64,000 bases of DNA. It comes from Bacillales bacterium UBA4951 (GTDB lineage Bacteria > Bacillota_I > Bacilli_A > RFN20 > CAG-826). Made by a program: the position numbers and the translations under genes. The notes beneath the pieces were generated by a model, which searched no databases, was not told where the DNA came from, and was given only the letters and a program-made list of their open reading frames with translations. Each line of letters begins with the position of its first letter. The stretch's first letter is position 1. This document shows positions 439 through 33,796 of the stretch, piece by piece. The stretch lies in NCBI GenBank assembly GCA_002397465.1, contig DHAP01000051.1, positions 104,770 to 168,769 on the forward strand, written 5' to 3'.

Positions 439-498
439 AAGACTAGGCGGAGGCTTCTATTCTTAGCCTCTCTAAGCGTATAATGTGCCTATAAATAT

Positions 499-2754: not shown

Positions 2755-2769
2755 AGAAGGAGAAACAAC

Positions 2770-5810: not shown

Positions 5811-5812
5811 AC

Positions 5813-5832
5813 CATACTATAATTATAGTATG
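5813..5832. promoter_or_regulatory. 20-bp perfect palindrome CATACTATAATTATAGTATG containing a TATAAT on each strand, upstream of tkt
   Basis: Read directly. It lies 3 nt after the aspS stop and 48 nt before the tkt ATG. Candidate operator overlapping a -10, or a short AT-rich hairpin. Confidence 0.45.
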
Positions 5833-5879
5833 AGAAACTAATAAACCACTAAATAGCTACCAAGGAGGGTTAAGCAAAA

Positions 5880-7862
5880 ATGGAATTATTCAAGAAAGAG
5901 AATTCGCTCGACAAAGAAGCCGTTGCCGCTATTCGAAGCCTTTTGATCGACGAGATCAACAAAGCCAAGAGCGGACATCCAGGCATGGCCTTGGACATCG
6001 CGCCGGCCTTGTACGTTTTGTATAAGAACCATTTGATTGCCGACCCGAAAGATCCCAAATGGATCAACCGCGACCGTTTCGTTCTTTCAAGCGGCCACAA
6101 CTCCGCTCTTTTATACGCGATGCTCCACGTGGCTGGCTATGCCGTCAGCATGGACGACATCAAAAAGTTCCGTCAGCTCAATTCCATCACTCCAGGCCAT
6201 CCTGAAGTTGGCATGACTCCGGGCGTCGATGCGACTGCTGGGCCTTTGGGCCAAGGCGTCGCCCAGGCCGTTGGCATGGCCATGGCCGAAGAGGCCGTAA
6301 GGGCCTCTTATCCAGAAGGCGGTAAAATCATGTCCCATCGGACTTATTGCCTTTGCGGAGACGGATGCCTTGAAGAGGGCCTGAGCCAAGAAGCCATTTC
6401 CTTCGCTGGCAAACAGAAACTCGGAAAACTCATTTTGATATATGACGCCAATACATCGACCCTTGACGGGCCGACCTCCAATAGCATGGACGAAGACGTC
6501 AAAATGCGTTTTATGTCCGCACATTGGAACGTCTATGAGGTCAAAGACGGCAATGACTTAGCGGAAATCGACCATGCCATCAGCAAAGCCAAAGAGAAGA
6601 GCGATGCCCCATCCATGATCATGATTCACACGATCATCGGCTTTGGAAGCGCCCTTCAGGGATCCCATAAGACGCATGGCAACCCGCTTGGCGCCGAAGA
6701 CGGGGCCCACGCGAAATCCGTTTATGGCTTTGACTATCCCGACTTCACCATTCCTGACGAAGTCTACAAATTATTCAAAGACAGCTTTGCCGCCAGAGGA
6801 GAAAAAGCCCACGAGGAGTGGAATGCTGCTTTTGCCTCCTATGGCAAAGAACACGAGAAGGAAGCCAAGGTTTTCAAGGACGCCTTCGAAAGAAACCTCA
6901 AGGATTATCGTTTGCCGAAACCGTTGTTCGATCCTTCCACCAAAGAGGCCAGCCGTTCCACAAGCGGACGCATAGTGGCCAATCTTCCAAAGATCATCCC
7001 CTTCACCTTGGGCGGCTCGGCTGACGTGGCCGGCTCCGTCAAGACAGCGATCCCGGGCGATCCTGGATTCGACAAAGACCACAGAAACGCCAAGAACGTC
7101 AACTTCGGCATACGGGAATTTGCGATGGCTTCCATCCAAAACGGCATGCTCTTGCATGGCGGACTCGTTACATACGTCGGATGCTTCTTGATTTTCAGCG
7201 ATTACATGAAGAGCGCCATCAGGATGAGCTGCCTTGAAAAAGTTCCGGCCATCTATCTCTTCTCCCATGACTCGATCGCCGTTGGCGAAGACGGCGAGAC
7301 CCATCAGCCAATCGAGCAGCTTGCCGCCTTAAGGACGATTCCAGGCCTTAGGACCATTCGCCCAGCCGATGCCAAAGAGACGAGCGAGGCTTGGCAATTA
7401 GCCCTCGACAGCGTCTCTGAGCCGACCGCCATCATCCTTTCTAGACAAGACCTTCCGTTATTGGCTCATTCTTCCAGCGACGGCGTGGACAAAGGAGCCT
7501 ATGTCGTCTCTTCGTCCGAAAAGAAAGCCACGATCGAGCTCATTGCGACCGGAAGCGAGGTTTCTCTCGCCATCGACGTCCAGAAGCTTCTTGCCCTCAA
7601 AGGCATTGAGGCCGAAGTCGTTTCCATGCCCTGCGTCGAACTATTCGAAAAACAGAGCGAGGACTACAAGAAGTCCGTCTTGAGCCTCCCGAAGAGCCAA
7701 CGTTATTCGTTGGAGATGGCTTGCGGTGCCACTTGGTACAAATACGCCGATCACGTCATATCGCTTGACGAGTTCGGACGCAGCGCGCCAGAGGCTGATG
7801 TCATCGCCTATTTTGGCTGGACCAAAGAGGAAATCGCCAAGAGGATACTTGCCACTCTTTAA
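5880..7862 (+). CDS. tkt: Transketolase
   Basis: 660 aa. N-terminal TPP-binding signature (SGHPGMALDIAPALYVLY, GDGCLEEG). AAGGAGGG SD 8 nt upstream. Confidence 0.95.
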   Translation: MELFKKENSLDKEAVAAIRSLLIDEINKAKSGHPGMALDIAPALYVLYKNHLIADPKDPKWINRDRFVLSSGHNSALLYAMLHVAGYAVSMDDIKKFRQLNSITPGHPEVGMTPGVDATAGPLGQGVAQAVGMAMAEEAVRASYPEGGKIMSHRTYCLCGDGCLEEGLSQEAISFAGKQKLGKLILIYDANTSTLDGPTSNSMDEDVKMRFMSAHWNVYEVKDGNDLAEIDHAISKAKEKSDAPSMIMIHTIIGFGSALQGSHKTHGNPLGAEDGAHAKSVYGFDYPDFTIPDEVYKLFKDSFAARGEKAHEEWNAAFASYGKEHEKEAKVFKDAFERNLKDYRLPKPLFDPSTKEASRSTSGRIVANLPKIIPFTLGGSADVAGSVKTAIPGDPGFDKDHRNAKNVNFGIREFAMASIQNGMLLHGGLVTYVGCFLIFSDYMKSAIRMSCLEKVPAIYLFSHDSIAVGEDGETHQPIEQLAALRTIPGLRTIRPADAKETSEAWQLALDSVSEPTAIILSRQDLPLLAHSSSDGVDKGAYVVSSSEKKATIELIATGSEVSLAIDVQKLLALKGIEAEVVSMPCVELFEKQSEDYKKSVLSLPKSQRYSLEMACGATWYKYADHVISLDEFGRSAPEADVIAYFGWTKEEIAKRILATL

Positions 7863-7902
7863 TGGTGTTGCCCTTTTAGGGCGGCGAAAGTAAAATATAC
7901 GC

Positions 7903-8241
7903 ATGAAACGTGACTACTATTACCTTCATAATTACCAGTCCAAGGGCGCCATCGGCATCTCTCGCCACGCTTTTGAGACGATAGCTACCATCGCCGCCAA
8001 CCAAGTCAAAGGCGCCAGCGTCTCCACCAAAAAAGGACGTCTCTTCAATTTGGAGCATCCGGTGAAGGCCAGTTTTCGCAAAGACGGCAAGGTCGATTTC
8101 AACCTGGACGTCAACATCAAAAGCGGTGCCAACGTCAAGGATGTTTGCCTTCAGATCCAAGAAGGCGTGGCTTCGGCTATTACCATGATGTGTGAGACAG
8201 TTCCTTTCGGAATTGAAATAAAGGTGGTCTCCGTCAAATAA
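7903..8241 (+). CDS. Asp23/Gls24-family (alkaline shock protein-like) protein, YqhY-like
   Basis: 112 aa. GAIGISRHAFETIATIAANQVKG is typical of the Asp23 family. It lies upstream of nusB, as B. subtilis yqhY does. Confidence 0.7.
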   Translation: MKRDYYYLHNYQSKGAIGISRHAFETIATIAANQVKGASVSTKKGRLFNLEHPVKASFRKDGKVDFNLDVNIKSGANVKDVCLQIQEGVASAITMMCETVPFGIEIKVVSVK

Positions 8242-8256
8242 CGGAGGCCTTTTTTT
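8229..8256 (+). terminator. Hairpin (CTCCGT-6-ACGGAG) followed by a T7 run; terminator or attenuator between the Asp23-like gene and the next CDS
   Basis: The loop contains the stop codon of the upstream gene. The 3' arm overlaps the GGAGG SD of the 8257 CDS, and the T-run abuts its ATG. Confidence 0.4.
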
Positions 8257-8763
8257 ATGCCCTCTGGAACTAAGAATTCCTCAATGTTTGACAAGACGTT
8301 GGCACTTTATCAGAAGCTGTGCCTGTTTTTGCTATATCCGCCCTTGATATCTATGGTGACCTGCTTCATCGGGAGTTTCAATGATGGCTATGACTACTAT
8401 CTGAGTTTGGCCAGTGAGAGAAGCCTCATGATGTTCCTCAGAGAGAACCCCATAGGCTCTAACGTCTCCATGAGCATGCTTTTGGGTGACGTCGTCTCAA
8501 TCATCGTCTTGGCTTTGTTCGTCGTTTTGACTATCTATGCCAGCAAAGGGAAGGTTTACTGCCTTGCCATCGGGGCCGCCTTATATCTAGCCGACACCGT
8601 TTATCTATGTTTTTTGTGCGGTTCGTCCCTTCCGTATTCCATGGAAGCGGGCTCGTGGGGGCTTCAGTTTGCGCTCCATGTGATTTTCTTTCTTTTATAT
8701 GTGGCCTCTTTCTTCGTTTATGGTAAACTATTGCGTCTTCTGAAAGAAAACCGGGGACATTGA
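8257..8763 (+). CDS. Hypothetical integral membrane protein (about 4 TM segments)
   Basis: 168-aa ORF with four hydrophobic stretches and a GGAGG SD 9 nt upstream. No recognisable family. Confidence 0.5.
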   Translation: MPSGTKNSSMFDKTLALYQKLCLFLLYPPLISMVTCFIGSFNDGYDYYLSLASERSLMMFLRENPIGSNVSMSMLLGDVVSIIVLALFVVLTIYASKGKVYCLAIGAALYLADTVYLCFLCGSSLPYSMEAGSWGLQFALHVIFFLLYVASFFVYGKLLRLLKENRGH

Positions 8764-8766
8764 TCT

Positions 8767-9195
8767 ATGAAAAAAGAACTCACAAGAAACCAACTACAGG
8801 AAAAATCCCTCTTCGCCATCTACGCCATTTTGACTTATGCCGACATGAATGAGGAAGTGGACGTTAAGTCGCTTGTGAGCGGTCTTACCGAAGAAAACTA
8901 TGAGGATAGCGATCCTTATATCAAAGCCATCATCATCAATGTCATCAAACATATGGGAGAAATCATCCCAGTTTATAACAAAAACATGCGGAAATGGACT
9001 TTTGACCGACTGAACAGAGTCGAACAAGCCATTCTTTTGCTCAGCTACTGCCAATATTTCTACGTCGATAAGGACGTCGACAAAGGCGTCGTGATCGACG
9101 TTGCCGTCAAACTGGCCAAGACTTATCTTGACGCGACTGACTACAAGTTCGTCAACGCCATCTTGGACAAGGTGCTAACCCGTGAGAGTGCCTGA
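8767..9195 (+). CDS. nusB: Transcription antitermination factor NusB
   Basis: 142 aa. Size and position (Asp23-family gene, then nusB, then xseA) match the Bacillota operon. NusB-like helical sequence. Confidence 0.7.
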   Translation: MKKELTRNQLQEKSLFAIYAILTYADMNEEVDVKSLVSGLTEENYEDSDPYIKAIIINVIKHMGEIIPVYNKNMRKWTFDRLNRVEQAILLLSYCQYFYVDKDVDKGVVIDVAVKLAKTYLDATDYKFVNAILDKVLTRESA

Positions 9196-10381
9196 GTCCT
9201 CATTTTTATCGGTCACCGAGCTCAACAACCTTTTGAAGTTGAAGGTTCAAAGCGACCCATCGCTGCATAATCTCGTCGTAAAAGGCGAGATATCAAGTTG
9301 GAAAAGTTATCCTTCTGCCACATATTTCGACGTCAAAGACGAAAGAAGCGTTCTTTCGTGCCTTCTTTGGGCGAGCGAATACATCTATCTCCCCTTTGAA
9401 CCAAAAATAGGAGACGAGGTGCTTCTATACGGATACCTCGACGTATACGCCAACCGTGGCCGTTACTCGCTTATCTGCCAAAAGATCGAACTGTTTGGTC
9501 AAGGCAAAGAGCTTCTGGCCCTAGAAGCCCTGAAAAAGAAGCTTCAGAGTGAAGGCCTCTTTGACGAATCAAGGAAAAGAAGCATCCCCGAATTCCCCTC
9601 GAAAATCGGAATGATCGTTGGGAATGGAAGCGCAGCCGAGGCTGACTTGTTGAAGAATCTTCAAAGAAGATGGCCTTTATCCGATCTTTATGTCTTCCCG
9701 TCGCTTGTTCAAGGCAAAGAAGCCCCAAAGGATTTGCTGAGGGCTTTCAAACTGAGCCAAGAATATCCGCTTGATGTTCTGATCATCGCCAGGGGCGGTG
9801 GATCAAACGAAGACTTGTCGGCTTTCAATGATGAGTCATTGTGCCGCGCCGTCAGCAATAGCAAAATGCCGACAATATCTGCCATAGGCCACGAAATAGA
9901 CTTCAGCATCCTCGATTTCATCGCCGATAAACGAGTCTCAACGCCAACTGCGGCGGCTGAGATGGCCACGCCAGACGTCAACGACATCAGGCAGGAACTC
10001 GATGACTGCTTCGCCTCATTGTCATCATCGCTCATAAAGAACGTCTCTTCATGCCGTGAGAAACTTAATTCTCTATCCAACCGCCCATTCTTCAAGAATC
10101 CGGCTTCAGCCTATCATGAGAAGATTGAGAGACTGAGGGAACATGAAACAAGGCTCAACAACGCGACCGATAACGCCTTGCTTCTTAAAAAGAATGAGGT
10201 CTCATCGCTTAAAACTCATCTTGAGGCTTTGAACCCTTATAGCGTGATCAATAGGGGCTATTCCCTTACCGAGAATGAAGACGGTAAAATCATCAGTTCC
10301 GCTAAAGACGTTAAAGAAGGAGACCGACTGAGCACAAGACTCAAAGATGGTATAATCCATTCTAAGGTCTTCAAGGAGTGA
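9182..10381 (+). CDS. xseA: Exodeoxyribonuclease VII large subunit
   Basis: 399 aa. N-terminal OB fold (VVKGEISSWKSYPSATYFDVKDERSVLSCLLW) and catalytic region (IARGGGSNEDL). GTG start overlaps the nusB end, so the start is uncertain. Confidence 0.9.
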   Translation: MRVPESSFLSVTELNNLLKLKVQSDPSLHNLVVKGEISSWKSYPSATYFDVKDERSVLSCLLWASEYIYLPFEPKIGDEVLLYGYLDVYANRGRYSLICQKIELFGQGKELLALEALKKKLQSEGLFDESRKRSIPEFPSKIGMIVGNGSAAEADLLKNLQRRWPLSDLYVFPSLVQGKEAPKDLLRAFKLSQEYPLDVLIIARGGGSNEDLSAFNDESLCRAVSNSKMPTISAIGHEIDFSILDFIADKRVSTPTAAAEMATPDVNDIRQELDDCFASLSSSLIKNVSSCREKLNSLSNRPFFKNPASAYHEKIERLREHETRLNNATDNALLLKKNEVSSLKTHLEALNPYSVINRGYSLTENEDGKIISSAKDVKEGDRLSTRLKDGIIHSKVFKE

Positions 10382-10386
10382 GAAAA

Positions 10387-10593
10387 ATGACAGAGAAAAA
10401 AGAAAAGTCTTTTGAAGAAAAGCTTGCTAGGTTAAACGAGATAGTCGAAAAGGTTGAGAACGAAACCTTGCCCCTCGAGACATCTACCAAGTTATTCGAG
10501 GAGGGGAAGGGGCTCATTTCCGAGCTTGAATCCACTTTGAAGGATGCCGAGAAAAAGATCGGAAAATACAACGAGATCAAAAACGACAAATAA
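10387..10593 (+). CDS. xseB: Exodeoxyribonuclease VII small subunit
   Basis: SFEEKLARLNEIVEKVENETLPLE is typical of XseB. I prefer the ATG at 10387 (AAGGAG 8 nt upstream) over the ORF-track GTG at 10378. Confidence 0.85.
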   Translation: MTEKKEKSFEEKLARLNEIVEKVENETLPLETSTKLFEEGKGLISELESTLKDAEKKIGKYNEIKNDK

Positions 10594-10634
10594 ATTTTAT
10601 AGTGAATAATTAGTAGTTTTTAGGTTGTTCCACG

Positions 10635-12506
10635 ATGGAAGAAAAAATAGAAAGAATCGACATAAAGTCCATTAAGGACCCATCATTCGTCAAAAAAATT
10701 GGCTACAAGAGTTTAGCCATTCTTTGTCATGATATCCGCCGTGAAATCATTCAGGAAACGAGCATCTATGGCGGCCACTTGGCAAGCAACCTCGGAACCG
10801 TTGAGTTGACCGTCGCCTTGTATCGAGTTTTCGATTTCCCCAAGGACAAACTGATCTTCGACGTCGGCCATCAATGCTACACACACAAGATTCTGACCGG
10901 ACGCAGCCTAGAAGGACTTCGCCAGAAAAACGGTCCGAGCGGTTTTGAGAGAATGGACGAATCCGCTTATGATTGCTATGAAGCCGGTCATGCCGGTACT
11001 TCGCTTTCTGCCGCCGAAGGCTTTGCGATCGCCCGCGATTTAAGAGGCGAAGACTTCAATGTTGTAGCCGTCATCGGAGATTCTTCCATTGTTAACGGAC
11101 TCTCTTTTGAGGCTTTGAACAATATCGGATCAAGGAAAAACAAGATAATCGCCATTCTTAACGACAACGATATGTCAATTTCCCGACCTGTCGGCGGGCT
11201 CGGGAACTTCTTCAGAAAGATTTCGACTGATCGCTGGTACAACAAGTTCAAAAATCAGTATCGCCGTGCCCTTTATAGAACTCATGTCGGCCGTGGAATA
11301 TATGCTTTTTCGTATTATTTGAAGACTAACATCAAAACCGCTTTGGTGCCGACCACCATGTTCGACAATATGGGATTCACCTATATTGGACCAGTCGATG
11401 GCCATAACATCCAAGCGCTCGAGAAAGCTTATAGACAGGCTCAAAACACGACGAAATCAGCCGTTATCCATGTTTACACCCAAAAAGGAAAAGGCTACGA
11501 TCCAGCGGAGAAAGACGAATCGGGATATTGGCATGGCGTCTCGCCTTTTGACGTCGAGACCGGCGAGCCGACGAACCTTCATCCAGCGCTTATCAGCTGG
11601 AGCCACCTGGCTGGTGATTTAACTCATGAAGCCCTTGAGAAATGTAAAGATAGAATTCTCATCTGCCCAGCGATGATCAAAGGAAGCCATTTGGAATCAT
11701 GCTTTGCCGATTTCCCTTCTCGTTGTTTTGACGTAGGAATCTCCGAGGAGCACGCTTTGACGCTTGCTGGATCCTTGTCCATAAACGGATTCCATCCAAT
11801 CGTCGTCATTTATTCGACGTTTTTGCAAAGAGCCTATGACGAATTGCTTCATGACTGCGCCCGAATGAACACCGACGTCAGCATTTTGATCGACCGTTCC
11901 GGGCTCGTCGGAGCCGATGGTTCGACCCACATGGGGATTTACGATGAAAGCTATCTTAAATCGATTCCTGGCGTAACTCTCGCGATGCCATCGACTTTAG
12001 CGGAATTCAAATCGCTTTATCAGACTTCCTTAGAGAGCGGCCATGGCGTTTTTGCCATCCGTTATCCTCACACTTTGACTTCCGAGCTTGCTTCCATTCC
12101 AAAACTTAAATTGCCATATGGAAAGTCGAGGTTCGTCCAAATTGTAAAGAAAGAGCTCCCTTCGATTGTGGCCGTTGGGCCCAAAGGTTTGGCCTTGATG
12201 GAAAAACTCCAGGAAAACAATTTCCAAGGCGGATTGGTAAATCCTCTTTATCTCTGTCCGATCGATTCATCAATGGTCGAGTCTTTGCTTGATTCAAGAT
12301 TCGTCTATATCTACGACCCATATTCTACAAGCAACGGATTCGCCGAGTCATTGGCCGCCGAGTTGGCTCTTCATTCTTATAAAGGATGCGTTTACGTCAA
12401 GAGCATTGCCCCATGCTATGTCCATCATGCCAAAGTCGATGAACAGGAAAAAGAACTCGGAGTCGACCTCGACGGCGCCTACCAAGACGTCATTTCCAAA
12501 CTCTAG
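10635..12506 (+). CDS. dxs: 1-deoxy-D-xylulose-5-phosphate synthase
   Basis: 623 aa. GGHLASNLGTVELTVAL...FDVGHQCYTHKILTGR is the Dxs signature. It follows xseB as in B. subtilis, but no ispA lies between them. Confidence 0.95.
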   Translation: MEEKIERIDIKSIKDPSFVKKIGYKSLAILCHDIRREIIQETSIYGGHLASNLGTVELTVALYRVFDFPKDKLIFDVGHQCYTHKILTGRSLEGLRQKNGPSGFERMDESAYDCYEAGHAGTSLSAAEGFAIARDLRGEDFNVVAVIGDSSIVNGLSFEALNNIGSRKNKIIAILNDNDMSISRPVGGLGNFFRKISTDRWYNKFKNQYRRALYRTHVGRGIYAFSYYLKTNIKTALVPTTMFDNMGFTYIGPVDGHNIQALEKAYRQAQNTTKSAVIHVYTQKGKGYDPAEKDESGYWHGVSPFDVETGEPTNLHPALISWSHLAGDLTHEALEKCKDRILICPAMIKGSHLESCFADFPSRCFDVGISEEHALTLAGSLSINGFHPIVVIYSTFLQRAYDELLHDCARMNTDVSILIDRSGLVGADGSTHMGIYDESYLKSIPGVTLAMPSTLAEFKSLYQTSLESGHGVFAIRYPHTLTSELASIPKLKLPYGKSRFVQIVKKELPSIVAVGPKGLALMEKLQENNFQGGLVNPLYLCPIDSSMVESLLDSRFVYIYDPYSTSNGFAESLAAELALHSYKGCVYVKSIAPCYVHHAKVDEQEKELGVDLDGAYQDVISKL

Positions 12507-12548
12507 AAATTACTTAACATAATGGCAAAGGTCTCTTAAAATGTTTTT

Positions 12549-13739
12549 ATGAGCAAAATCATCGTGCACATCGACTTGAACGCCTTTTTTGCAACCTGTG
12601 AGCAAATCAAGCATCCGGAGTTTGTCGGCAAGCCCGTCATCGTCGCTGGACTTGGCGGACGCGGCGTCGTTTCAACGGCTTCCTACGAGGCTCGCTCCTA
12701 CGGCGTTCATTCAGCCATGCCGACCTATCAAGCCCGTGAGCTTTGTCCCCAAGGAATCTTCGTCGAAGGCGATTATCAATATTATGAAATGATGTCACGC
12801 TCATTTTTCTCCTACATCCGTTCTTTTACCTCGCTGGTCGAGGAGGCTTCTATAGATGAATGCTTCGCCGACATGAGCAAAGCCCTCGCCAAGGAGAAAG
12901 ACCCGTATGCTTTTTTCAAACGGGTTCAGGATGGGCTCTATTCCCAGATGGGGCTGAAGTGCTCCATCGGCGTGGCCCCAAATAAATTCCTTGCCAAAAT
13001 GGGGTCCGACATGAAGAAACCGATGGGCATAACGATAGTCAGAAAAAAAGACATACCTTTTTTGATTTATCCTCTCCCGATTGAATCGTTTTTCGGAATC
13101 GGCAAAAGAACCTCCCCAAAACTAAGGGAAATGGGCATCAACACGATTGGAGACCTCGCCGAGAAATTGAAGGTTGACGATCCATCGCTCCAGGAGACGC
13201 TTGGCAAATTTTACTTCACGGTCAAGGACTGGTGTTTTGGCAATGGAAGCGATGTCATCGACACTTTGCCGTTTGACCCCAAAAGCATCGGCCACAGCAT
13301 CACCTTCCCTAGCGACACCGATGATTATGAGGAGATCAAACAAGAGATATCCCTCCTTTCACACGAAGTCAGCGACGGGGCCAATCAATGCCATAAAAAA
13401 GGGAGAACCGTTCAGTTGGCGGTCAAGGACTCTTCTTTCCACACTCATGACAAATCCATATCTTTCAAAGATCTGACCTCCGACTATTCGGTGATATTTC
13501 AAAAAGCCACCGATCTCTTCGAACATAATTTCCTCGGCATGACCATAAGGCTGGTCGGTGTCACTTTGCAAAACCTCGTCGACCCCAAGGAAGAGACGGT
13601 CCAGATGAGCTTTTGGAACTTCGGAGACTACGAGAAGATGGATGAGACGAAACTCCTCGTCAACGAACTTAACAGAAAGATGAAGACGCCGTCTTTGAAA
13701 CTTGCGAATGAGGTGAAAAAGAAAAATGGAAGTAAATGA
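12549..13739 (+). CDS. dinB: DNA polymerase IV (Y-family)
   Basis: 396 aa. IVHIDLNAFFATCE...GVVSTASYEARSYGVHSAMP are Y-family palm motifs. Confidence 0.9.
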   Translation: MSKIIVHIDLNAFFATCEQIKHPEFVGKPVIVAGLGGRGVVSTASYEARSYGVHSAMPTYQARELCPQGIFVEGDYQYYEMMSRSFFSYIRSFTSLVEEASIDECFADMSKALAKEKDPYAFFKRVQDGLYSQMGLKCSIGVAPNKFLAKMGSDMKKPMGITIVRKKDIPFLIYPLPIESFFGIGKRTSPKLREMGINTIGDLAEKLKVDDPSLQETLGKFYFTVKDWCFGNGSDVIDTLPFDPKSIGHSITFPSDTDDYEEIKQEISLLSHEVSDGANQCHKKGRTVQLAVKDSSFHTHDKSISFKDLTSDYSVIFQKATDLFEHNFLGMTIRLVGVTLQNLVDPKEETVQMSFWNFGDYEKMDETKLLVNELNRKMKTPSLKLANEVKKKNGSK

Positions 13740-14607
13740 GGCCCTGATCCGTTTTTATCAATATCTGGCGGTCGAAAGAGGCGTCGAGCCTCTCACAATC
13801 ATCGACTATCAGCAAGACATGAAGATGTTTTTCAAACGTTTCCCTGAAAAGAAGGACACCTCCGATCTCCATCCTAGCGACGTTGGTGATTTCATGCGCG
13901 TGGAATCCGAGAAAGGCTATTCATCGGCCACGATCCTAAGACGTCTTTCTTCGACGAGAAGCTTCTACCAATTCCTTTCATCAGAAGGCCTGATCGACGA
14001 GGACGTTCCTGATTACGAGGGACCGCGTTCAAGCCACAAACTCCCGATCGTCCTCTCAAAAGAGGAAGTCGACGCCCTATTGGAGGCCCCGGACATGAGC
14101 AATGACGGCGGCATCAGGGACCGGGCCATGCTTGAGGTCATGTATGCCTCAGGACTTCGCGTTTCGGAACTATGCTCTTTGAAGCTAGGAGAGGTCAATC
14201 TCATAAACCATTTGTTGACCATATATGGCAAAGGCAATAAGCAACGTAGTGTTCCCCTCAGCTCTTTCGCCGGCGACTATCTTCAAAAATACCTCGATGG
14301 CCCAAGGGCCCGAAACAAAGGCCGCTCCTCGGAATATGTTTTCCTAAACAGGAACGGGAAGCCCATCAGCCGTGTCTATTTCTTCACTCAGATCAAAAAG
14401 TATGCCAAGAAGGCAGGCATTGAAACGCCCATCTCTCCGCACACCCTCAGACATTGCTTTGCGACCCACCTTCTGGAGAACGGGGCGGATCTTCGAAGCG
14501 TCCAGGAAATGCTCGGGCACAGCAAAATTGCCACGACTCAGATTTACACCCATGTCTCAAGCAAGCGGATCATGAGCGCCTATGATTTGTATAGCAAAAG
14601 AAAATGA
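13726..14607 (+). CDS. xerD: Tyrosine site-specific recombinase XerD-like
   Basis: 293 aa. N-terminal SAM-like domain, C-terminal HTLRHCFATHLLENGADLRSVQEMLGHSKIATTQIYTH (R-H-R-Y catalytic set). It precedes deoB, as B. subtilis ripX does. Confidence 0.85.
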   Translation: MEVNEALIRFYQYLAVERGVEPLTIIDYQQDMKMFFKRFPEKKDTSDLHPSDVGDFMRVESEKGYSSATILRRLSSTRSFYQFLSSEGLIDEDVPDYEGPRSSHKLPIVLSKEEVDALLEAPDMSNDGGIRDRAMLEVMYASGLRVSELCSLKLGEVNLINHLLTIYGKGNKQRSVPLSSFAGDYLQKYLDGPRARNKGRSSEYVFLNRNGKPISRVYFFTQIKKYAKKAGIETPISPHTLRHCFATHLLENGADLRSVQEMLGHSKIATTQIYTHVSSKRIMSAYDLYSKRK

Positions 14608-14646
14608 ATTAAGATATCAGGCGGTAGCAAATCCGCGAGGTCATAT

Positions 14647-15852
14647 ATGAAAAACAAATTTAAGCGTGTCTTCTTGATCGTCGCCGACTCGGCTGGAATC
14701 GGGGAAGAGCCCGATGCCGCCAAATTCGGCGATTGCGGGACTAATACCTGGGTTCACGCGGCTAGTTCCGTCGGCGGGCTCAACGTTCCGGTCATGGAGA
14801 GTTTTGGAGTCGGCGAATTGGCCGATATCCCTGGCGTGAAAGCCGTTCACGATCATCCACATGCCTTTTCGATGAGGCTTAGAGAGATGAGCAACGGCAA
14901 GGATACGATGACTGGCCATTGGGAGATGATGGGCGTTTTGACCACCAAGCCCTTTCAGACTTTCACCGACACCGGATTCCCTGATGATTTGATCAAAGAG
15001 CTCGAAAAAGAGACCGGACACAAGATCATCGGCAATTATTCCTCAAGCGGAACCGAGATTTTGAAGGTCCTTGGCGAAGAACAGATGAAAGAGAATTCTT
15101 TGATCGTCTATACTTCCGCTGACTCCGTCCTTCAGATTGCCGCTCACGAAGAGGTGACTGGAAAAGACGAGCTATACAGATGCTGCGAAATCGCCAGAAA
15201 GCTTTGCATGCGCCCCGAATGGTTCGTCGGGAGGGTTATCGCCCGTCCTTACGTCGGAACGAACAAAGACAATTTCAAGCGCATCGTTGGCGACAGAAGG
15301 GACTATGCCGTCTCTCCTAGTGCCATCACCGTCATGGATATTCTCAAAGACAATGGCTTCATGGTTTCTTGCATCGGCAAAATCAGTGATATCTTCAACG
15401 ATGTCGGTGTGGTCAAAACCGTGCATACCGTCTCAAATGAAGATGGTATGGATAAGACGATAGAACAGGTCAAAAACGACGATTTCACCGGACTTTGCTT
15501 CGTTAATCTCGTTGAATTTGACTCAGAATACGGCCATAGAAGAAATCCTGTCGGATATGCTAGGGCCCTTGAGGCTTTTGATAAGCGTCTCAAAGAGCTT
15601 TTGCCTTTAATGAAAGACGACGATTTATTGATGATCACCGCCGACCATGGCAACGATCCGACCTACAAAGGCACCGATCACACAAGGGAAAAAGTTCCTC
15701 TTTTGATCTATTCGCCATCTCTTATAAATGGCTCGTATATCGATGAGAGAGCCTCCTTCGCCGACATCGGTTCAACTATCTTGAAAGACTTTGATTTATC
15801 TCAGCCTGAAAAGATGATTGGAACCCCGATAGAAGAACTTTTCGGTAAATAA
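14647..15852 (+). CDS. deoB: Phosphopentomutase
   Basis: 401 aa. RVFLIVADSAGIGEEPDA...ITADHGNDPTYKGTDHTRE is typical of DeoB. GAGG SD upstream. Confidence 0.9.
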   Translation: MKNKFKRVFLIVADSAGIGEEPDAAKFGDCGTNTWVHAASSVGGLNVPVMESFGVGELADIPGVKAVHDHPHAFSMRLREMSNGKDTMTGHWEMMGVLTTKPFQTFTDTGFPDDLIKELEKETGHKIIGNYSSSGTEILKVLGEEQMKENSLIVYTSADSVLQIAAHEEVTGKDELYRCCEIARKLCMRPEWFVGRVIARPYVGTNKDNFKRIVGDRRDYAVSPSAITVMDILKDNGFMVSCIGKISDIFNDVGVVKTVHTVSNEDGMDKTIEQVKNDDFTGLCFVNLVEFDSEYGHRRNPVGYARALEAFDKRLKELLPLMKDDDLLMITADHGNDPTYKGTDHTREKVPLLIYSPSLINGSYIDERASFADIGSTILKDFDLSQPEKMIGTPIEELFGK

Positions 15853-15890
15853 TTATCGAAAGTTGATTTCTCGACTTTTCTTCGATGAAT

Positions 15891-15926
15891 AACCTCACCA
15901 AGTCAATTGCTTGCATGAGGTTTTCA
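15891..15926 (+). terminator. Probable deoB terminator (AACCTCA-18-TGAGGTT followed by TTTTC)
   Basis: 7-bp stem with a large loop, then a T-run, 39 nt after the deoB stop. Confidence 0.45.
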
Positions 15927-16019
15927 TTAAGCCTAGACTAAGTAAGGCTTTAGGAGAAACCCAAAGCCTCTGTCAAAAAATTGTAAAGATTTGCGGCACT
16001 CAAAATAAGGAATAAAAAC

Positions 16020-17009
16020 ATGAACAAAAAAACAATGCTGTTTGCGCCTTTGGCCTTGTTGGCCTTGGCCTCTTGCTCAGGAGGATCTTCCTCATCGGAA
16101 GCCGCCACCTCCGAAGAACCGGCTTATCAAGTCAAATGGGTGACTCCGACCGGAACCCCGACCTTGGCTTTCTACAACCAAGGAAGCAACGCCAACTGGG
16201 TGTCATCATCAACTCCGTCGACCGTCGTTGTGCCTTCCTTTCAGACCAATAACTATGACGCGATCGTCTTCGACGGCGTTTCTGGCTTGAACGTCATCAA
16301 TAAGACGGGAGCGAATTACAAACTCGCCAAATGGATCAGCGGTGGCAATTTCTACGTTGTTTCGACTACGCATACATCGACTGACAGCTTTGCGACTGGC
16401 GAAACGATTATGAGCTTCGTCCAAACCGGAAACGCCAGCCGCTCATTCCTTAAGCTAAGCAAGGACGTTTGGAATTGGAACTACGCCGACACCGACATCA
16501 CCTATCAAACAGGCGTGGCTGGCGTCGCCCAAAGCATTCTTCAGAATGGCGGCAACACAGACTATTATGTGGTGGCTGAGCCAGTTTTGACCTCTTTGAA
16601 GAGCAAATTAGGGGATAACCTCCACGTAATCTATGATCTTCAAAGCGAATGGAAGAAAGCCTATAACCAGGAAACGATTCCTGCAGCGGCTTTGTTCATC
16701 AATAATGACAGTTATTCCGCCCATAAAGACTCATTAGATACGTTCATCAGCGACACCCAAAAGAGGATGGATACCGCGATTAGCACGCCATCGACCATCA
16801 AAGCTTCTCTTGATGCCTATGGCAACGACGCGGCCGTTCAAAACAGATTCGGATTCACCTCAAGCCTGGCCGTTTCGCTTCAAAGCTCGAATAAGAATGA
16901 CTTTGGCCTTCTCAAAAGCGGAGTCATCACCGACAATAAAGCCTTCGCAAACGACTTTAACGTAACGCTCGGCGGAACCGCCTTCTCAGATTCTCTCTTC
17001 TTGGAGTAA
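16020..17009 (+). CDS. Putative lipoprotein, probable ABC-transporter substrate-binding protein
   Basis: Signal peptide with lipobox (LALASC), followed by a Ser-rich linker. It lies immediately upstream of an SsuC/TauC-type permease. Family assignment is tentative. Confidence 0.6.
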   Translation: MNKKTMLFAPLALLALASCSGGSSSSEAATSEEPAYQVKWVTPTGTPTLAFYNQGSNANWVSSSTPSTVVVPSFQTNNYDAIVFDGVSGLNVINKTGANYKLAKWISGGNFYVVSTTHTSTDSFATGETIMSFVQTGNASRSFLKLSKDVWNWNYADTDITYQTGVAGVAQSILQNGGNTDYYVVAEPVLTSLKSKLGDNLHVIYDLQSEWKKAYNQETIPAAALFINNDSYSAHKDSLDTFISDTQKRMDTAISTPSTIKASLDAYGNDAAVQNRFGFTSSLAVSLQSSNKNDFGLLKSGVITDNKAFANDFNVTLGGTAFSDSLFLE

Positions 17010-17043
17010 AATTAACCCCGGAAGGGATTCCGAAATTGTAAAG

Positions 17044-17853
17044 ATGAAAAAGAATAAGCGAACCTATTTGATCGAGACCCTTTGCTGGGTCTTAGGGTTC
17101 GCTTTTTTGATTGGCGTCTGGTATCTATGTTCGTACCTTATGTATCGCGTAGGGAACCGTTTGCTTCCTTATCCTCATGAAGTACTGGTTACGCTAGCAA
17201 AGGTCTTGTTTGATCCTAACTATGCCGCGACGACATATTCGGCCATCGGATGGACGCTTGCCCGTTTGCTGATAGGATTCACTATTTCGTTTTTGCTCGG
17301 GATGATTTTAGGGACGATAGGGGGTTTGTTCAAAAACTTCAAACGGTTCATGTCTCCGTTCGTTTCTTTTGCAAAGACTATGCCAACGGCGGCATTTGTG
17401 ATCATCTTGCTTGGAGTCTTCCTCCAATTCAGGGGTTTATCGCCTTATATACCATGCTTCTTGGTATTCATGGTTGCATTCCCGTTGATCTATGAAGCCT
17501 TCGCAAGCGGAATCGAGAACGAAGCCCCAGACGTTAAAGACGCTCTTAAGCTAGATGGCGGCGACAAAAGCCTTTCTGCCATAACCCAGGTCCTATGGCC
17601 AGACAGCGAAAGTTATATAAATTTGTCCATAGCCCAAAGCCTTGGATTATCGATGAAGGTTTCTGTCATGAGCGAGATCTTAACCAATTCGTCAACATCG
17701 CAAGGCGGAATCGGCTGGCTAATAGCTGATTCGAATCTTTATGCATCGATGAAAGAGATAATGGCTTATTCATTGATAGCCGTCTTTATGGTAGCGATAA
17801 TCGATATTCCATTATCGGTTCTAAAAAAGGAAATGAAGAAGAAATTGCAATAG
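17044..17853 (+). CDS. ABC transporter permease (binding-protein-dependent, SsuC/TauC/NitT-like)
   Basis: 269 aa, about 6 TM segments, EAA-type loop (ALKLDGGDKSLSAITQVLWPDS). No ATPase gene is adjacent. Confidence 0.8.
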   Translation: MKKNKRTYLIETLCWVLGFAFLIGVWYLCSYLMYRVGNRLLPYPHEVLVTLAKVLFDPNYAATTYSAIGWTLARLLIGFTISFLLGMILGTIGGLFKNFKRFMSPFVSFAKTMPTAAFVIILLGVFLQFRGLSPYIPCFLVFMVAFPLIYEAFASGIENEAPDVKDALKLDGGDKSLSAITQVLWPDSESYINLSIAQSLGLSMKVSVMSEILTNSSTSQGGIGWLIADSNLYASMKEIMAYSLIAVFMVAIIDIPLSVLKKEMKKKLQ

Positions 17854-17973
17854 TGACAATTTGTATAATTGTAAAGGTAGAAACCAAAGTAGTAGTAAAG
17901 AGGATCGGCCAACTGATCTAAATAAACACAAGGCCAAACAAAGACAATCATAAAGCACGAGCGATTCATAAAC

Positions 17974-17996
17974 AGGATGGTAAACCATCCTTTTTT
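17974..17996 (+). terminator. Rho-independent terminator closing the + strand gene block
   Basis: AGGATGGT-AA-ACCATCCT followed by TTTTTT. Confidence 0.8.
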
Positions 17997-18088
17997 AGAC
18001 TACGGAAAATGAAAGCCTTTGAAAGAAGAGACATGATCAGAAAATGAACATTTGAGTTTGTTAGTTGTTTATTAGTAGATTTTAAAAA

Positions 18089-18097
18089 TGTGGATAA
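18089..18097 (-). promoter_or_regulatory. Perfect DnaA-box 9-mer (TTATCCACA on the - strand)
   Basis: TGTGGATAA read on +. It lies inside TAAAAATGTGGATAACTA, which shares 15 nt with the 28.4-kb copy and 12 nt with the 27.4-kb copy. Confidence 0.5.
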
Positions 18098-18184
18098 CTA
18101 TAGAATTAATGTGCGTAAAACAAAACAAGATTTGTAATTACTATAAATAGAAATGAGCCTTATATCGATAAATATACTTCTTTT

Positions 18185-18212
18185 CGTTAACATAATGGAC
18201 ATTATTCGCAGT
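18185..18212 (-). other. dif-like XerC/XerD recombination site
   Basis: The - strand reads ACTGCGAATAA-TGTCCA-TTATGTTAACG. That is 21/28 identical to E. coli dif (GGTGCGCATAA-TGTATA-TTATGTTAAAT) and 19/28 to B. subtilis dif as I recall it. The XerD arm matches 9/11 in both. It sits at the gene-orientation switch. Confidence 0.65.
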
Positions 18213-18483
18213 CATGTAAAATATAAGAATAAGGGTCCTCCAAATACCGTTTCTTCTTCAAACTACTAACCACTTATGGCGCCTTGCTTCCCTTCGTTAC
18301 TCCTGATTTTCACGTTTTCACGATCTCGAATTTTCTTCCACCGCCCCATTAACTCGCCCTTTATCATGCCTGTTTTCTTCTTGTGCTGCATTCTCTTCTT
18401 CTCACTCTATACTCCTCTCGAAATTGAAGAATGGCATTAATTTCTTTCCTTTACAATATCAATAAACCACTTCTACATTTCAT

Positions 18484-18515
18484 AATAAAAAGCGGCGTTG
18501 TCCTAACACGCCGCT
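18484..18515 (-). terminator. Rho-independent terminator of the yqeG-rsfS operon
   Basis: AGCGGCGT-9-ACGCCGCT, with TTTTTAT following on the - strand, 19 nt after the rsfS stop. Confidence 0.8.
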
Positions 18516-18533
18516 ATTCTTTGACTGCAATAT

Positions 18534-18866
18534 TTAGTGTTTTTTCGCTTCGGCTAGAAGTTTCTCTAACGATATTTCAGCACGCTTTTCTTTAGTGAAT
18601 ATATGGACAACTACAGATCCTTCATCGACTATTACCCATCCGGATTCTGGTTTTCCTTCAATTTGCCTGATATCAATTTTGTTTTTGGCGAACGCTTGAT
18701 CCAAATCGTCGGCAAAAGCTCCTAAGGCTCTTTCGTTTGGGGCGGTCGCTATGACGTAATAGTCACTGAATGGCGTATTTTCCTTAACATCCACCACTTC
18801 GACTTCTTCGGCTTTTCTGTCTTCGAGTTCCTTAACGGCTATCTTGACTGCTTTTGGATAATTCAT
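18534..18866 (-). CDS. rsfS: Ribosomal silencing factor RsfS
   Basis: RsfS-like sequence (AVKELEDRKAEEVEVVDVKENTPFSDYYVIATA). I prefer the ATG at 18866, which has an ATGA overlap with the upstream stop and a GGAGAG SD, over the ORF-track start at 18899. Confidence 0.85.
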   Translation of the reverse strand: MNYPKAVKIAVKELEDRKAEEVEVVDVKENTPFSDYYVIATAPNERALGAFADDLDQAFAKNKIDIRQIEGKPESGWVIVDEGSVVVHIFTKEKRAEISLEKLLAEAKKH

Positions 18867-19969
18867 TTCTTTTTCTCTCCTAGATATAGACGTCGGCATT
18901 CTTCTGAAAGCGGATTGTCTTCTGTCATGCCGGCTTTCTTAAGGTATTTCGTGTTCTCCTTTAGAACATAGATGAAACCAATGTAATAGTTTTTTAAGCA
19001 CCTGGCTATCATTTTCGACGAATCATAGCCTCTGGATGGCTCGATCTTGTCGCTTTCGTAGATGATTTTCGTCAATGGAGGCATATGGGCTTTGCCAGTG
19101 CAATGGTACTTGATTGCATCCAATATGTCTTCTTCCTGAACTCCAAATTCCTTTTTAGCGAGGTAGCATCCAGTGAATTGATGAAAACACCAATCAGGAT
19201 AACCTGTGTATTCGGAGAAGTTCTCCTCCATTATCTTTTTGGTGGATGCGGCATCTAGGTGCTTTCCTAAATCATGGAGCAATCCGGCGATATAGGCGTG
19301 TTCCGGATTAAGGATATCGTTTCGTTTGGCAATCGCGTAAGCCAGATGAGCGACGCTGAGACTATGAACCAGGCGTTTTCCGCTCACAAACTTCGTGAGC
19401 TTCTCCATATAGTAAAGGCGATGGCTTTCAATATAGTCGAGGACTTTGGATGGGACATCGATGCTTTTAAGCTCTCTGACGGATGTCGAGGAAACGCTTC
19501 CTGATCCCCCATAGTTCAAGGGAATCATGTGAAAGCGGTCGGCTATGGCTTTGTCGATTTTGACATCTGGTCGCTCGACATAAACGACTTGGGCGCAGGA
19601 AGCTATCTCGGCTGGGTTTTGCCATTTGTCAAATTGGTTGGCCTGATCGGCCCCAATGAGCAAATACAGTTGATGATTCGGGTATTTGTCCTGGAAATGA
19701 TGGATGGTGTCTATCGAATAGTTCACTTCTGAATCGGAATTGATTTCAAAAAGATCGATTGAGAAATCAGCGCTGCCATTCTCTTCTAAGGCAAGCTTAA
19801 GCATTGCCAAACGGTCATCAGGGCTGGCGGAAGGCTCCTTCCACCTCGGGGATTTGGCCGGAACGAAAACGACCTCCGCGTTCAGCCTTAGGGACGCAGC
19901 CCTGGCTAGACGGAGATGTCCGTTGTGGACCGGGTCAAATGAGCCGCCGTAGATGACAATCTTTTCCAT
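18863..19969 (-). CDS. nadD: Fusion protein: nicotinate-nucleotide adenylyltransferase NadD + HD-domain YqeK
   Basis: N-terminus has GGSFDPVHNGHL (the nucleotidyltransferase HxGH motif). C-terminus has LVHSLSVAHL...GLLHDLGK (the YqeK-type HD domain). It is one uninterrupted 368-aa ORF. Confidence 0.85.
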   Translation of the reverse strand: MEKIVIYGGSFDPVHNGHLRLARAASLRLNAEVVFVPAKSPRWKEPSASPDDRLAMLKLALEENGSADFSIDLFEINSDSEVNYSIDTIHHFQDKYPNHQLYLLIGADQANQFDKWQNPAEIASCAQVVYVERPDVKIDKAIADRFHMIPLNYGGSGSVSSTSVRELKSIDVPSKVLDYIESHRLYYMEKLTKFVSGKRLVHSLSVAHLAYAIAKRNDILNPEHAYIAGLLHDLGKHLDAASTKKIMEENFSEYTGYPDWCFHQFTGCYLAKKEFGVQEEDILDAIKYHCTGKAHMPPLTKIIYESDKIEPSRGYDSSKMIARCLKNYYIGFIYVLKENTKYLKKAGMTEDNPLSEECRRLYLGEKKK

Positions 19970-26637: not shown

Positions 26638-27366
26638 ATGAACCCAATTGTAGGAAACATTCTCGTTGCGGTAAGCTGCTTTCTTTTTGGTTACCTTATC
26701 GGTGGGATTCCGAATGGCGTGATCATCGGACGGATATTTTTCGGCAAAGATCCTAGAGATTATGGGAGCCACAATTCAGGCGGCACCAATTCAGGCCGTG
26801 TTTTCGGCAAATGGATAGGTTTTCTCGTCATCTTTCTCGACATGATGAAGGCGGTAATAGCTTTCTATGCCGTCTGGGCTGTCATTCGTTTCTCGTCGCT
26901 TCAAACCACTACGCCTTTATGGGATGACGGAGTGTTCTATATTTGGCTGACGGGCCTCGGTGTTTCAGTCGGCCATTGCTGGTCTCCTTATCTCAATTTC
27001 AAAGGTGGCAAGACCGTGGCTTGTTTCATGGGTTTGGTCGGCGGAACTTCCTGGCTTGGCTTCATCGTTTGCTGCTTATCGTTCTTCCCGTTCCTCTTCC
27101 AAAAGAAAATCGTCTCCCGCTCGTCTTTATTCTCTGGGGCGATCATCGTGGCTTTCGAATGGGTGATGTATCTCATCGTTGCTTTGAGCGGATGGGATGG
27201 GACCATCCTGATGTGGAACTTTGGGGCTGGAGGCGGCCTCTTCTTTGGCTGGGAAAGCGCAAGCGTCGTCACAGCAGTCTACCTTATTATGGTTTTAAGA
27301 CATTCCCAGAATATCAAACGCCTCAAGGCCGGAACCGAGTCAAAACTTGACTGGAGTGGTAAATAA
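26638..27366 (+). CDS. plsY: Glycerol-3-phosphate acyltransferase PlsY
   Basis: 242 aa polytopic membrane protein. GSHNSGGTNSGRVFGKW matches the PlsY SGNxGxTN motif region. Confidence 0.9.
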   Translation: MNPIVGNILVAVSCFLFGYLIGGIPNGVIIGRIFFGKDPRDYGSHNSGGTNSGRVFGKWIGFLVIFLDMMKAVIAFYAVWAVIRFSSLQTTTPLWDDGVFYIWLTGLGVSVGHCWSPYLNFKGGKTVACFMGLVGGTSWLGFIVCCLSFFPFLFQKKIVSRSSLFSGAIIVAFEWVMYLIVALSGWDGTILMWNFGAGGGLFFGWESASVVTAVYLIMVLRHSQNIKRLKAGTESKLDWSGK

Positions 27367-27396
27367 TTAGTAGTTATTTGTAACATTATTTTCGAC

Positions 27397-27405
27397 TGTG
27401 GATAA
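27397..27405 (-). promoter_or_regulatory. Perfect DnaA-box 9-mer (TTATCCACA on the - strand)
   Basis: TGTGGATAACTA read on +, in the AT-rich convergent gap between plsY and the yneF-like gene. Confidence 0.5.
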
Positions 27406-28405: not shown

Positions 28406-28414
28406 TTATCCACA
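28406..28414 (+). promoter_or_regulatory. Perfect DnaA-box 9-mer (TTATCCACA) upstream of efp
   Basis: The - strand reads TAAAAATGTGGATAA, identical over 15 nt to the 18.09-kb copy. It lies next to the palindrome TGGTAT-TCT-ATACCA (28379-28393). Confidence 0.5.
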
Positions 28415-29404: not shown

Positions 29405-30457
29405 ATGAAGCAAAGAGAAACGACACGTAGTGTCGCCTTGGGGCAGTTAAGCCTTGGGGGCAATGACCATGTCTACGTCCAGAGCATGTGCAATATCAAG
29501 ACATCCCGTTATGAGGAAGTGAGCGAGCAAATCAATCGCTGTGCTGCCCTAGGAGCCGAGATTATGCGCGTTTCCGTTTTGGATTTCGAAGATGCCGCCG
29601 CAATAAAAGAGATAAAGAAGAGAACGTCGATTCCCCTTGTGGCCGACATTCATATCGACCATCGCTTGGCTTTAGCAAGCCTTGAATCCGGCGTCGATGC
29701 CATTAGGATCAACCCCGGAAACATCGGCGACATCCAAAAAATCAAGGAAGTTGTCGAAGCCTGCAAACTCGCTCACGCGCCCATCAGAATAGGCGTCAAC
29801 TCCGGAAGCCTTGATAAGTCCGTCTACTATGGCAAGGATTTGATCAAAGGCGAGTATCTTTTCGAATCAGCTGAGAAACATGTGAAGATTCTTGAGAGCC
29901 TTGATTTCCATGACATCGTCATCTCCTTGAAAGGCTCTTCAGTCGAAGAGACCATTGAGGCTTATCGCTTGGCCGCCAAACGCTTCCCCTATCCGCTTCA
30001 TCTCGGCATTACCGAGGCTGGGCCGAAGGATATTGGACTAATCCGCTCGGCTGCCGGGCTTTCGCCGCTGCTTTTGGATGGCATAGGGAACACGATTCGC
30101 ATTTCCTTGAGCGATGAGCCTGAGGAAGAGATAAAAGCCTGCAACCGACTTCTTCATGATCTCGACCTGAAGAAAGATTATCCGACTTTCATTTCCTGCC
30201 CAACATGCGGGCGTACGCAAGTAAATCTCATTCCTTTGGCCAAGAAAGTCCTCATCTACCTAGAAGAAAACCACATTAACAAGACCGTGGCCATCATGGG
30301 TTGCATCGTCAACGGGCCTGGCGAAGCGAGACACGCCGATTTGGGCGCGGCCGGCGGAAAAGGCTGCTGGGCCATTTTCAAAAAAGGCGAAGTCATCAAA
30401 ACCGTTGATGAGAAAGATGTTTATCTTACCCTTGTCGAAGAAATCAACAAGTTATAG
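29405..30457 (+). CDS. ispG: 4-hydroxy-3-methylbut-2-enyl diphosphate synthase (IspG/GcpE)
   Basis: 350 aa. TIM-barrel N-terminus (VQSMCNIKT) and C-terminal Fe-S Cys motif (CPTCGRT...GCIVNGPGE). Confidence 0.9.
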   Translation: MKQRETTRSVALGQLSLGGNDHVYVQSMCNIKTSRYEEVSEQINRCAALGAEIMRVSVLDFEDAAAIKEIKKRTSIPLVADIHIDHRLALASLESGVDAIRINPGNIGDIQKIKEVVEACKLAHAPIRIGVNSGSLDKSVYYGKDLIKGEYLFESAEKHVKILESLDFHDIVISLKGSSVEETIEAYRLAAKRFPYPLHLGITEAGPKDIGLIRSAAGLSPLLLDGIGNTIRISLSDEPEEEIKACNRLLHDLDLKKDYPTFISCPTCGRTQVNLIPLAKKVLIYLEENHINKTVAIMGCIVNGPGEARHADLGAAGGKGCWAIFKKGEVIKTVDEKDVYLTLVEEINKL

Positions 30458-33657: not shown

Positions 33658-33796
33658 AAAATCTGATTGCGTATAGTTCGTAGCAATTTAATAATTAGTA
33701 TATTTATAGTAATACTATTGTTGTGGATTTATTCGATTAAATCACACTATATTATGAATTGCATGAAAGTGATTCCGATAAGGTGATTGCGGAAGA

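Follow-up and report, generated by a model that had tools for sequence, protein, structure and literature searches.

The classical dif/XerCD system, represented by dif/XerC-XerD/FtsK in Escherichia coli and by dif/CodV-RipX in Bacillus subtilis, combines a single-copy 28-bp site, built of two 11-bp arms around a 6-bp centre, with a convergent switch in gene orientation and a XerD-type recombinase of normal size. A second kind of arrangement, in which the recombinase gene is linked to dif at the terminus, is represented by XerS/difSL in streptococci and lactococci and by XerH/difH in Campylobacter and Helicobacter; difSL is atypical, at 31 bp, and such sites lie immediately upstream of a recombinase of ~355 aa that is markedly unlike XerCD (PMC1914069, PMC5357621). 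Among finished genomes of Firmicutes and Proteobacteria, dif lies within 0–1.39% (one standard deviation) of genome length from the switch in strand bias and never more than 3% from it, with distances of at most 3% in 97 Firmicutes (PMC3025954). Here we describe a site of the classical kind in a 64,000-nucleotide stretch of contig DHAP01000051.1 from Bacillales bacterium UBA4951 (the whole stretch is referred to as the window), where a 28-bp dif at 18185–18212 on the - strand lies inside a 680-bp noncoding gap on which two blocks of genes converge. This is a bona fide example of a well-known kind of feature, namely dif at the conserved replichore junction of a clade of uncultured Bacilli. Based on dif together with the convergent gene-strand bias, we estimate a probability of roughly 85% that the window spans the replication terminus region.

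Read 5' to 3' on the - strand, the site is 5'-ACTGCGAATAA-TGTCCA-TTATGTTAACG-3' and shows the classical dif structure of two imperfectly inverted 11-bp arms around a 6-bp centre. From this architecture, positions 18212–18202 were assigned to a putative XerC arm and 18195–18185 to a putative XerD arm, with TGTCCA (18201–18196) forming the central region between them. The window site agreed with E. coli dif at 21 of 28 positions and with B. subtilis dif at 19 of 28, both reference strings having been confirmed in Kono et al. 2011 (PMC3025954). The consensus of the clade, ACTTCGCATAATGTnnATTATGTTAACT, agreed with the same references at 24/28 and 23/28 positions, respectively, by our own count. 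When up to three mismatches were allowed, this consensus gave one match in the 64-kb window and none in 100 shuffles, and the second-best 28-mer in the window had 10 mismatches. Across an alignment of 11 genomes, the invariant columns were exactly the inner bases of the arms (...ATAA / TTAT...). By the published criteria, a dif should resemble that of B. subtilis, be unique and lie at the terminus (Le Bourgeois et al., PMC1914069); the window site showed this resemblance, was single copy as far as could be tested, and was located at the terminus in the sense of gene orientation only. We are nearly certain that the site is the chromosomal dif, and what the preliminary description had called a dif-like site at 18185–18212 was borne out as a strongly conserved canonical dif; these 28 bp are a candidate site for recombination by Xer.

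Conservation was assessed in ten species-level relatives among the GTDB representative genomes, which were found through an alignment of nadD-yqeK homologues; this alignment-based search was required because a query with a single protein reached only matches of 25–31% identity. The flanking proteins of these relatives were mostly 40–60% identical to those of the window. The exact 28-mer of the window itself had no match among the GTDB representatives. A 28-mer with 4–6 mismatches to it was found directly after rsfS (or following nadD-yqeK, where no rsfS open reading frame (ORF) was recovered) and in the same orientation in 10 out of 10 relatives, and the next-best 28-mer in each of these loci, which covered 6.5–21 kb, had 9–12 mismatches. 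The 28 bp were the sole conserved block in the alignment of the dif region, with the surrounding intergenic DNA scrambled. In total, a near-identical 28-mer occupied the same place in ~30 species-level relatives with GC contents of 27–58%. A scan of all GTDB representatives for the exact consensus returned 37 genomes with one copy each, one of them within a single contig of 1.48 Mb. Of these, 22 belonged to the clade of the window (GC 27–58%), and in most of the 22 dif lay between nadD-yqeK/rsfS and deoB-xerD, with a few 8-kb pieces reaching one side only. The remaining 15 genomes (Proteobacteria, Gemmatimonadetes, Myxococcota, Planctomycetia, an Enterococcus and others) had unrelated flanks, which is the behaviour expected of a near-universal dif consensus.

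The gene order in relatives was ...parE parC yqeG yqeH yhbY nadD-yqeK rsfS -> dif <- (ATP-binding cassette (ABC) permease, 329-aa protein) deoB xerD dinB dxs xseBA nusB tkt, and both arms read toward dif in every relative. The arrangement of rsfS -> dif <- transporter, deoB and xerD is ancestral and stable in the whole clade of small-genome uncultured Bacilli, the records of which are labelled 'Bacilli bacterium', 'Candidatus Enteromonas', 'Ca. Alloenteromonas', 'uncultured Mollicutes' or 'uncultured Erysipelotrichaceae'. It had been suggested earlier that this arrangement is specific to the lineage; the junction was indeed kept within the clade, no dif was found beside nadD of the one nearest outgroup compared (L018, Anaerorhabdus), and the placement of dif looks lineage-specific. 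The B. subtilis counterparts of both blocks presumably lie on a single replichore, at 2.45–2.82 Mb.

In the window itself, 16 of 16 coding sequences up to position 17853 lie on the + strand and 41 of 46 from 18534 onward lie on the - strand, which reproduced the orientation switch first described, including the same five exceptions (Fisher p = 7e-11 for strand versus side of the gap, in-window counts). Every gene of the left block (1–17853, +) thus points at the gap, as do the 41 genes of the right block (18534–64000, -). Upstream of the window the left block runs for at least another 10 kb in the same species, where seven further + genes (encoding an amylase, GT2, obg, ruvA, ruvB, a 918-aa protein and recJ) bring the count to 23 of 23, and co-orientation therefore extends over at least 27.8 kb on this arm; on the opposite arm it spans no less than 46 kb (41/46). 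A misassembly at the junction, which the preliminary description had named among the things that would refute a terminus, is contradicted by two independent assemblies, ERZ724026 and ERZ922857, which agree exactly across it, and by the recurrence of the arrangement in ~30 related genomes; the left block is also carried by three more assemblies of the species. The bacterium is an uncultured one of gut or fermenter habitats, and metagenomes from fermentation and digesters contain it (for example ERZ922857/SRR1561999, ERZ724026, JGI 3300045596 and 3300064469).

The same data bear on the idea that convergent operons simply meet locally at the gap, and that the 28-mer is a chance palindrome, or one not used by Xer, with no relation to replication. 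Convergent pairs of operons that end in terminators are common, and just 16 left-side genes are visible within the window. However, shuffled sequence gave no match to the 28-mer, which was kept across ~30 species amid scrambled flanks and was found as a single copy in genomes of several phyla, and the left block did not end at the window edge but continued to 23 of 23 genes. This explanation is therefore highly improbable, and we consider it effectively refuted already.

A real dif at an orientation switch on the scale of replichores is, given the distances reported for finished genomes (PMC3025954), the expected signature of a terminus, which supports the proposal in the preliminary description that convergence plus dif marks this region. 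In such a region, dif would be placed where the two replichores meet, and genes would be co-oriented with their own replication fork, such that both blocks would be transcribed toward dif and each would be closed by a terminator. The XerD encoded 3.6 kb away, acting with a presumed XerC/CodV homologue encoded elsewhere, would resolve chromosome dimers at dif during cell division, and the forks would presumably meet near the gap, roughly opposite oriC. A dif at the terminus is an ordinary feature, expected of any circular bacterial chromosome. Here it gives a fixed point on the chromosome map of a lineage of uncultured Bacilli with small genomes, which is known only from fragmented metagenome bins, and the 28-mer in its context of rsfS on one side and deoB-xerD on the other can serve as a marker for recognising the contig with the terminus throughout the clade.

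Several observations weigh against placing the terminus here. The species of the window is known only as contigs of up to 176 kb. The GC skew of the + strand was negative to the left of the gap and positive to its right, with a cumulative minimum at 18–19 kb, which is the opposite of a classical terminus. At 4-fold degenerate sites the skew was -0.408 in co-oriented and -0.413 in anti-oriented genes, and hence no replication-linked signal was detected. Known guide motifs for FtsK/SpoIIIE (KOPS/SRS), GAGAAGGG and GGGNAGGG, occurred 0–1 times per arm. The heptamer GAAGAAG was skewed 53:10 toward dif and was rejected as independent evidence since this skew follows the coding strand. Finally, neither XerC nor FtsK/SpoIIIE was seen in the annotated parts of the 64-kb window.

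Some of these points would also fit a real dif with a fork-meeting point some distance off, because of unequal replichores or termination that is not fixed in place. Consistent with such a displacement, Kono et al. concluded that termination occurs near dif rather than at dif (PMC3025954), no replication-linked skew could be detected in the window, and in the relative contig JAKVOO010000001.1 dif lay at ~298.5 kb of 1,481,977 bp, that is, at 20% of its length, though the start of this contig is arbitrary. Against it, the strand bias flipped exactly at dif in every relative, and an offset of no more than 3% would correspond to no more than 45 kb in a genome of ~1.5 Mb, which is about the size of the window. 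We consider a displaced terminus unlikely, and prefer a terminus region that includes the window.

The GC-skew check that had been proposed in the preliminary description gave a divided outcome, as the expected change of sign was found at the gap while its polarity (- to +) was origin-like and set by codon usage. Measured on the gene's own coding strand, the GC skew at third codon positions was negative throughout (C3 > G3; about -0.2 to -0.4), and the four complete anti-oriented genes were no exception. The skew therefore tracks the orientation of transcription and not replication, because co-oriented and anti-oriented genes were equal at 4-fold degenerate sites. Among the relatives, the 4-fold skew was higher in co-oriented than in anti-oriented genes in five genomes and the reverse in three, which was not significant. 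At the level of whole arms, the sign of the skew tracked genomic GC content within the clade while the arrangement stayed constant, being classical at 31–38% GC and inverted at 48–53% GC; in the low-GC relatives (31–38%), the strand reading toward dif was G-rich on both arms, which is the polarity of a classical terminus. Raw GC skew was accordingly rejected as a test for the terminus, since it reflects codon usage and is uninformative here. In the higher-GC members of the clade, that of the window included, C-ending codons are preferred over G-ending ones, and with genes so strongly biased in orientation the presumed leading strand becomes C-rich; calls of origin and terminus from GC skew, as well as growth-rate estimates built on such calls, would label the terminus as the origin.

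Taken at face value, the cumulative skew minimum at 18–19 kb would fit a gap that is a replication origin, or an origin-like region bound by DnaA, and the gap does contain an AT-rich stretch (18000–18240, 28% GC) and a perfect DnaA box (18089–18097) that is conserved in relatives. We nevertheless regard an origin as exceedingly improbable. The gap has a single DnaA box and no dnaA or dnaN, and its flanking genes converge, such that forks leaving an origin here would run head-on into essential genes such as dnaK, parCE and those for aminoacyl-tRNA synthetases. In addition, the sign of the skew went with the coding strand (anti-oriented genes, too, had C3 > G3), the skew reversed in low-GC relatives of the same arrangement, and the site is a canonical dif.

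The genes that adjoin dif on the deoB/xerD side varied among the relatives. A four-gene insert of 5.5 kb was present in L010 (3387–8974), and single extra genes were found in L008 (11951–12685), L016 (11841–12506) and L017 (12907–13665). The variability in L010, L008 and L016 could suggest that the 28-mer serves an Xer-exploiting mobile element (IMEX), or a plasmid or chromid (cer/psi-type), as its site of attachment or resolution. No duplicated dif was found around the inserts on this side, and a second, degenerate dif was likewise absent from their flanks, the best second match having 9–12 mismatches. The junction was also syntenic across the clade and surrounded by core housekeeping genes (aminoacyl-tRNA synthetases, dnaK, dnaG, sigA, parCE), such that an origin of the site in a mobile element, plasmid or chromid is very unlikely. 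The variable genes are consistent with ordinary plasticity near the terminus and not with IMEX insertion, and we retain the reading of the site as the chromosomal dif.

A xerD-type recombinase gene had been noted 3.6 kb from the site. Family models and structure matching supported this assignment for the gene at 13726–14607 (+), which encodes a tyrosine recombinase of 293 aa and ends 3578 bp from dif. The protein scored 325 bits with the XerD model TIGR02225, just under the cut-off of 329.6, and 289 bits with the XerC model. Its best match in the PDB was E. coli XerD (1A0P, E = 7e-53), nearly end to end, compared to 7.8e-23 for XerH (5JJV), and the C-terminal HxxR, LGH and YTH motifs were identical to those of 1A0P in the alignment. 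Three genes separate xerD from dif in the window. In the relatives whose loci reached the gene, the distance was 1.7–9 kb, mostly 2–4.7 kb, and it is in this close linkage that the clade differs from the classical system, with which it shares the 11-6-11 site (clade consensus 23–24/28), its single copy in the sequences scanned, the convergent switch and the size of the recombinase. In B. subtilis, ripX presumably lies several hundred kb from dif, and we take it to adjoin drm, the orthologue of deoB.

Since the position of xerD reflects conserved synteny, as judged by this ripX-drm pairing, its nearness to dif was not counted as independent evidence for a terminus. Linkage of a recombinase gene to dif at the terminus is shared with XerS/difSL and XerH/difH. 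However, the window has a classical 28-mer and a XerD-type protein of 293 aa, with deoB and transporter genes between them, and the features that define a single-recombinase module were not found at this site. The linkage thus looks like preserved synteny that abuts dif rather than a XerS-like cis module, although it may, as a weaker possibility, represent a cis-acting module in reduced genomes.

The gap (17854–18533) was confirmed as the largest noncoding gap of the window at 680 bp, the runner-up being 376 bp, and had a GC content of 34% compared to 48% for the window as a whole. Both of its ends were closed by inward-facing rho-independent terminators, as the preliminary description had stated, and both folded well. 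The terminator of the left block (17974–17996, +) consisted of a hairpin at 17974–17991 followed by a T-run (dG -10.4 kcal/mol, z -3.6) and was found by a terminator scan. The terminator of the right block, which follows rsfS (18484–18515, -), had an 8-bp GC stem and a T-run (dG -15.5 kcal/mol, z -3.8) and was passed over by the scan solely for its 9-nt loop. Between dif and the rsfS terminator lies a spacer of 270 bp (18213–18483) that is 70% pyrimidine on the + strand and contains short ORFs only (a basic one of 41 aa on the - strand and one of 54 aa on the + strand). The distance from rsfS to dif was 54–78 bp in five relatives and 245–351 bp, like that of the window, in four others. No Rfam family reached its gathering score in the window and nothing significant was found in or around the gap, where a sub-threshold match at 18476–18561 had an E value of 0.69 and 19 bits versus a gathering score of 64. 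Promoter-like hexamers occurred in the gap at the level of chance (4 found, 3.5 expected).

Beside dif, a conserved module (18061–18097, -) is made up of a DnaA box followed by tandem heptads. In the window, this comprised the perfect DnaA box TTATCCACA at 18089–18097 and then CTACTAA-N4-CAACTAA at 18061–18078. A box-like element of the form GTTWTCCACA together with tandem CTACTAA heptads of 11-bp period was found 85–160 bp beyond the XerD arm in 11 out of 11 aligned genomes, among them L006 (11799–11858), L008 (11849–11942), L010 (3081–3119), L011 (5129–5164), L012 (11240–11277), L016 (11782–11838) and L017 (11630–11667). The perfect TTATCCACA was present in the window and in five relatives, and was the sole perfect box in the locus for those relatives. 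In L008 and L009, another heptad pair, in inverted orientation, was present to the rsfS side of the 28-mer.

The heptad pair was not confined to dif. It had eight matches in the window versus 0.11 expected, and across the 11 loci 36 of 38 matches to the motif (C/T)TACTAA with 11-bp period were intergenic. Recurring sites in the window were located at 5835–5863, 10599–10627, 27356–27373, 33695–33712 and 58439–58456, and the syntenic ones lay upstream of four genes (tkt, dxs, yqeG and one encoding 566 aa) and at the plsY 3' end. The plsY copy in the window had a perfect DnaA box 24 bp away (27397–27405, -), which repeated the composite found beside dif. Overall, the 64 kb contained three perfect DnaA boxes, all intergenic, where we estimated ~0.5 by chance; the two outside the gap, at 27397–27405 (-) and 28406–28414 (+), flank the UPF0154-efp pair.

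As its heptads are also found in intergenic DNA elsewhere, the module is not specific to the terminus; the motif probably serves as a promoter element or as the site of a regulator shared by the whole clade. Direct repeats of 7 bp with a 4-bp A/T spacer have the architecture of tandem sites for winged-helix proteins or response regulators. It is doubtful, though conceivable, that the module is an accessory of the terminus, serving as a predicted platform for DnaA or a protein of the winged-helix or response-regulator type that would control Xer recombination, fork arrest or the organisation of the terminus; alternatively, it is simply another instance of a regulatory motif that is general to intergenic DNA. 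The Ter/RTP fork trap of B. subtilis likewise involves short protein-binding sites in the terminus region, binding here being a prediction. The TACTAA heptads beside dif resemble what we take to be the core of B. subtilis Ter sites (...ATGTACTAAAT...), a resemblance that we treat as a lead only. Unlike those sites, the repeats of the clade have a period of 11 bp rather than ~16 bp, and the motif also occurs far from dif and in mixed orientation. A polar, Ter-like fork trap formed by the TACTAA repeats was considered and rejected as the main reading, given how widely the motif is spread through intergenic DNA and that both arms carry it in either orientation.

According to the ORF listing and family scans, the left block consists of recJ', relA, hisS, aspS, tkt, two hypothetical genes, nusB, xseA, xseB, dxs, dinB, xerD, deoB and genes for the 329-aa protein and the ABC permease. 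A - strand ORF at 10371–10589, reported by a greedy ORF caller, was rejected as a false call that overlaps xseB, which shares the strand of xseA. In another NCBI bin of the same species (L086; GCA_002483615.1, DLIF01000034.1), obg, recJ, aspS and the gene for the 918-aa protein were called as short fragments, while they were intact in three other assemblies (L087–L089); errors or frameshifts in the sequence of L086 are the probable cause.

In the right block, the genes nearest the gap are rsfS, the nadD-yqeK fusion, yhbY, yqeH, yqeG, parC and parE, and those farther out include nfo, a DEAD-box helicase gene, trmK, two sigma-70 genes, dnaG, glyS, dnaK, grpE, hrcA, hemW, lepA, a gene for a DinG-like helicase, and fmt. 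The five exceptions, all on the + strand, are plsY (26638–27366), ispG (29405–30457), ispH (32767–33657), a GT2 gene (44374–45339) and the 5' end of cysK, which leaves the window at ~63.8 kb. Past the window edge, cysK forms an anti-oriented cluster of four genes with those for a hexapeptide-repeat (Hexapep) protein, an AMP-dependent ligase and rpsT, after which the genes are co-oriented again. The products of nadD (nicotinate mononucleotide (NaMN) adenylyltransferase) and yqeK (diadenosine tetraphosphate (Ap4A) hydrolase, HD domain) are fused in the window into one protein of 368 aa (18863–19969, -), and the same fusion was seen in hundreds of homologues (full-length matches of 364–376 aa; 554 at E ≤ 1e-20). 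Just downstream of dnaG, two sigma-70-family genes stand in tandem (34462–35490 and 35499–36905, -) and encode proteins of 342 aa and 468 aa, both of which contain regions 1.2, 2, 3 and 4.

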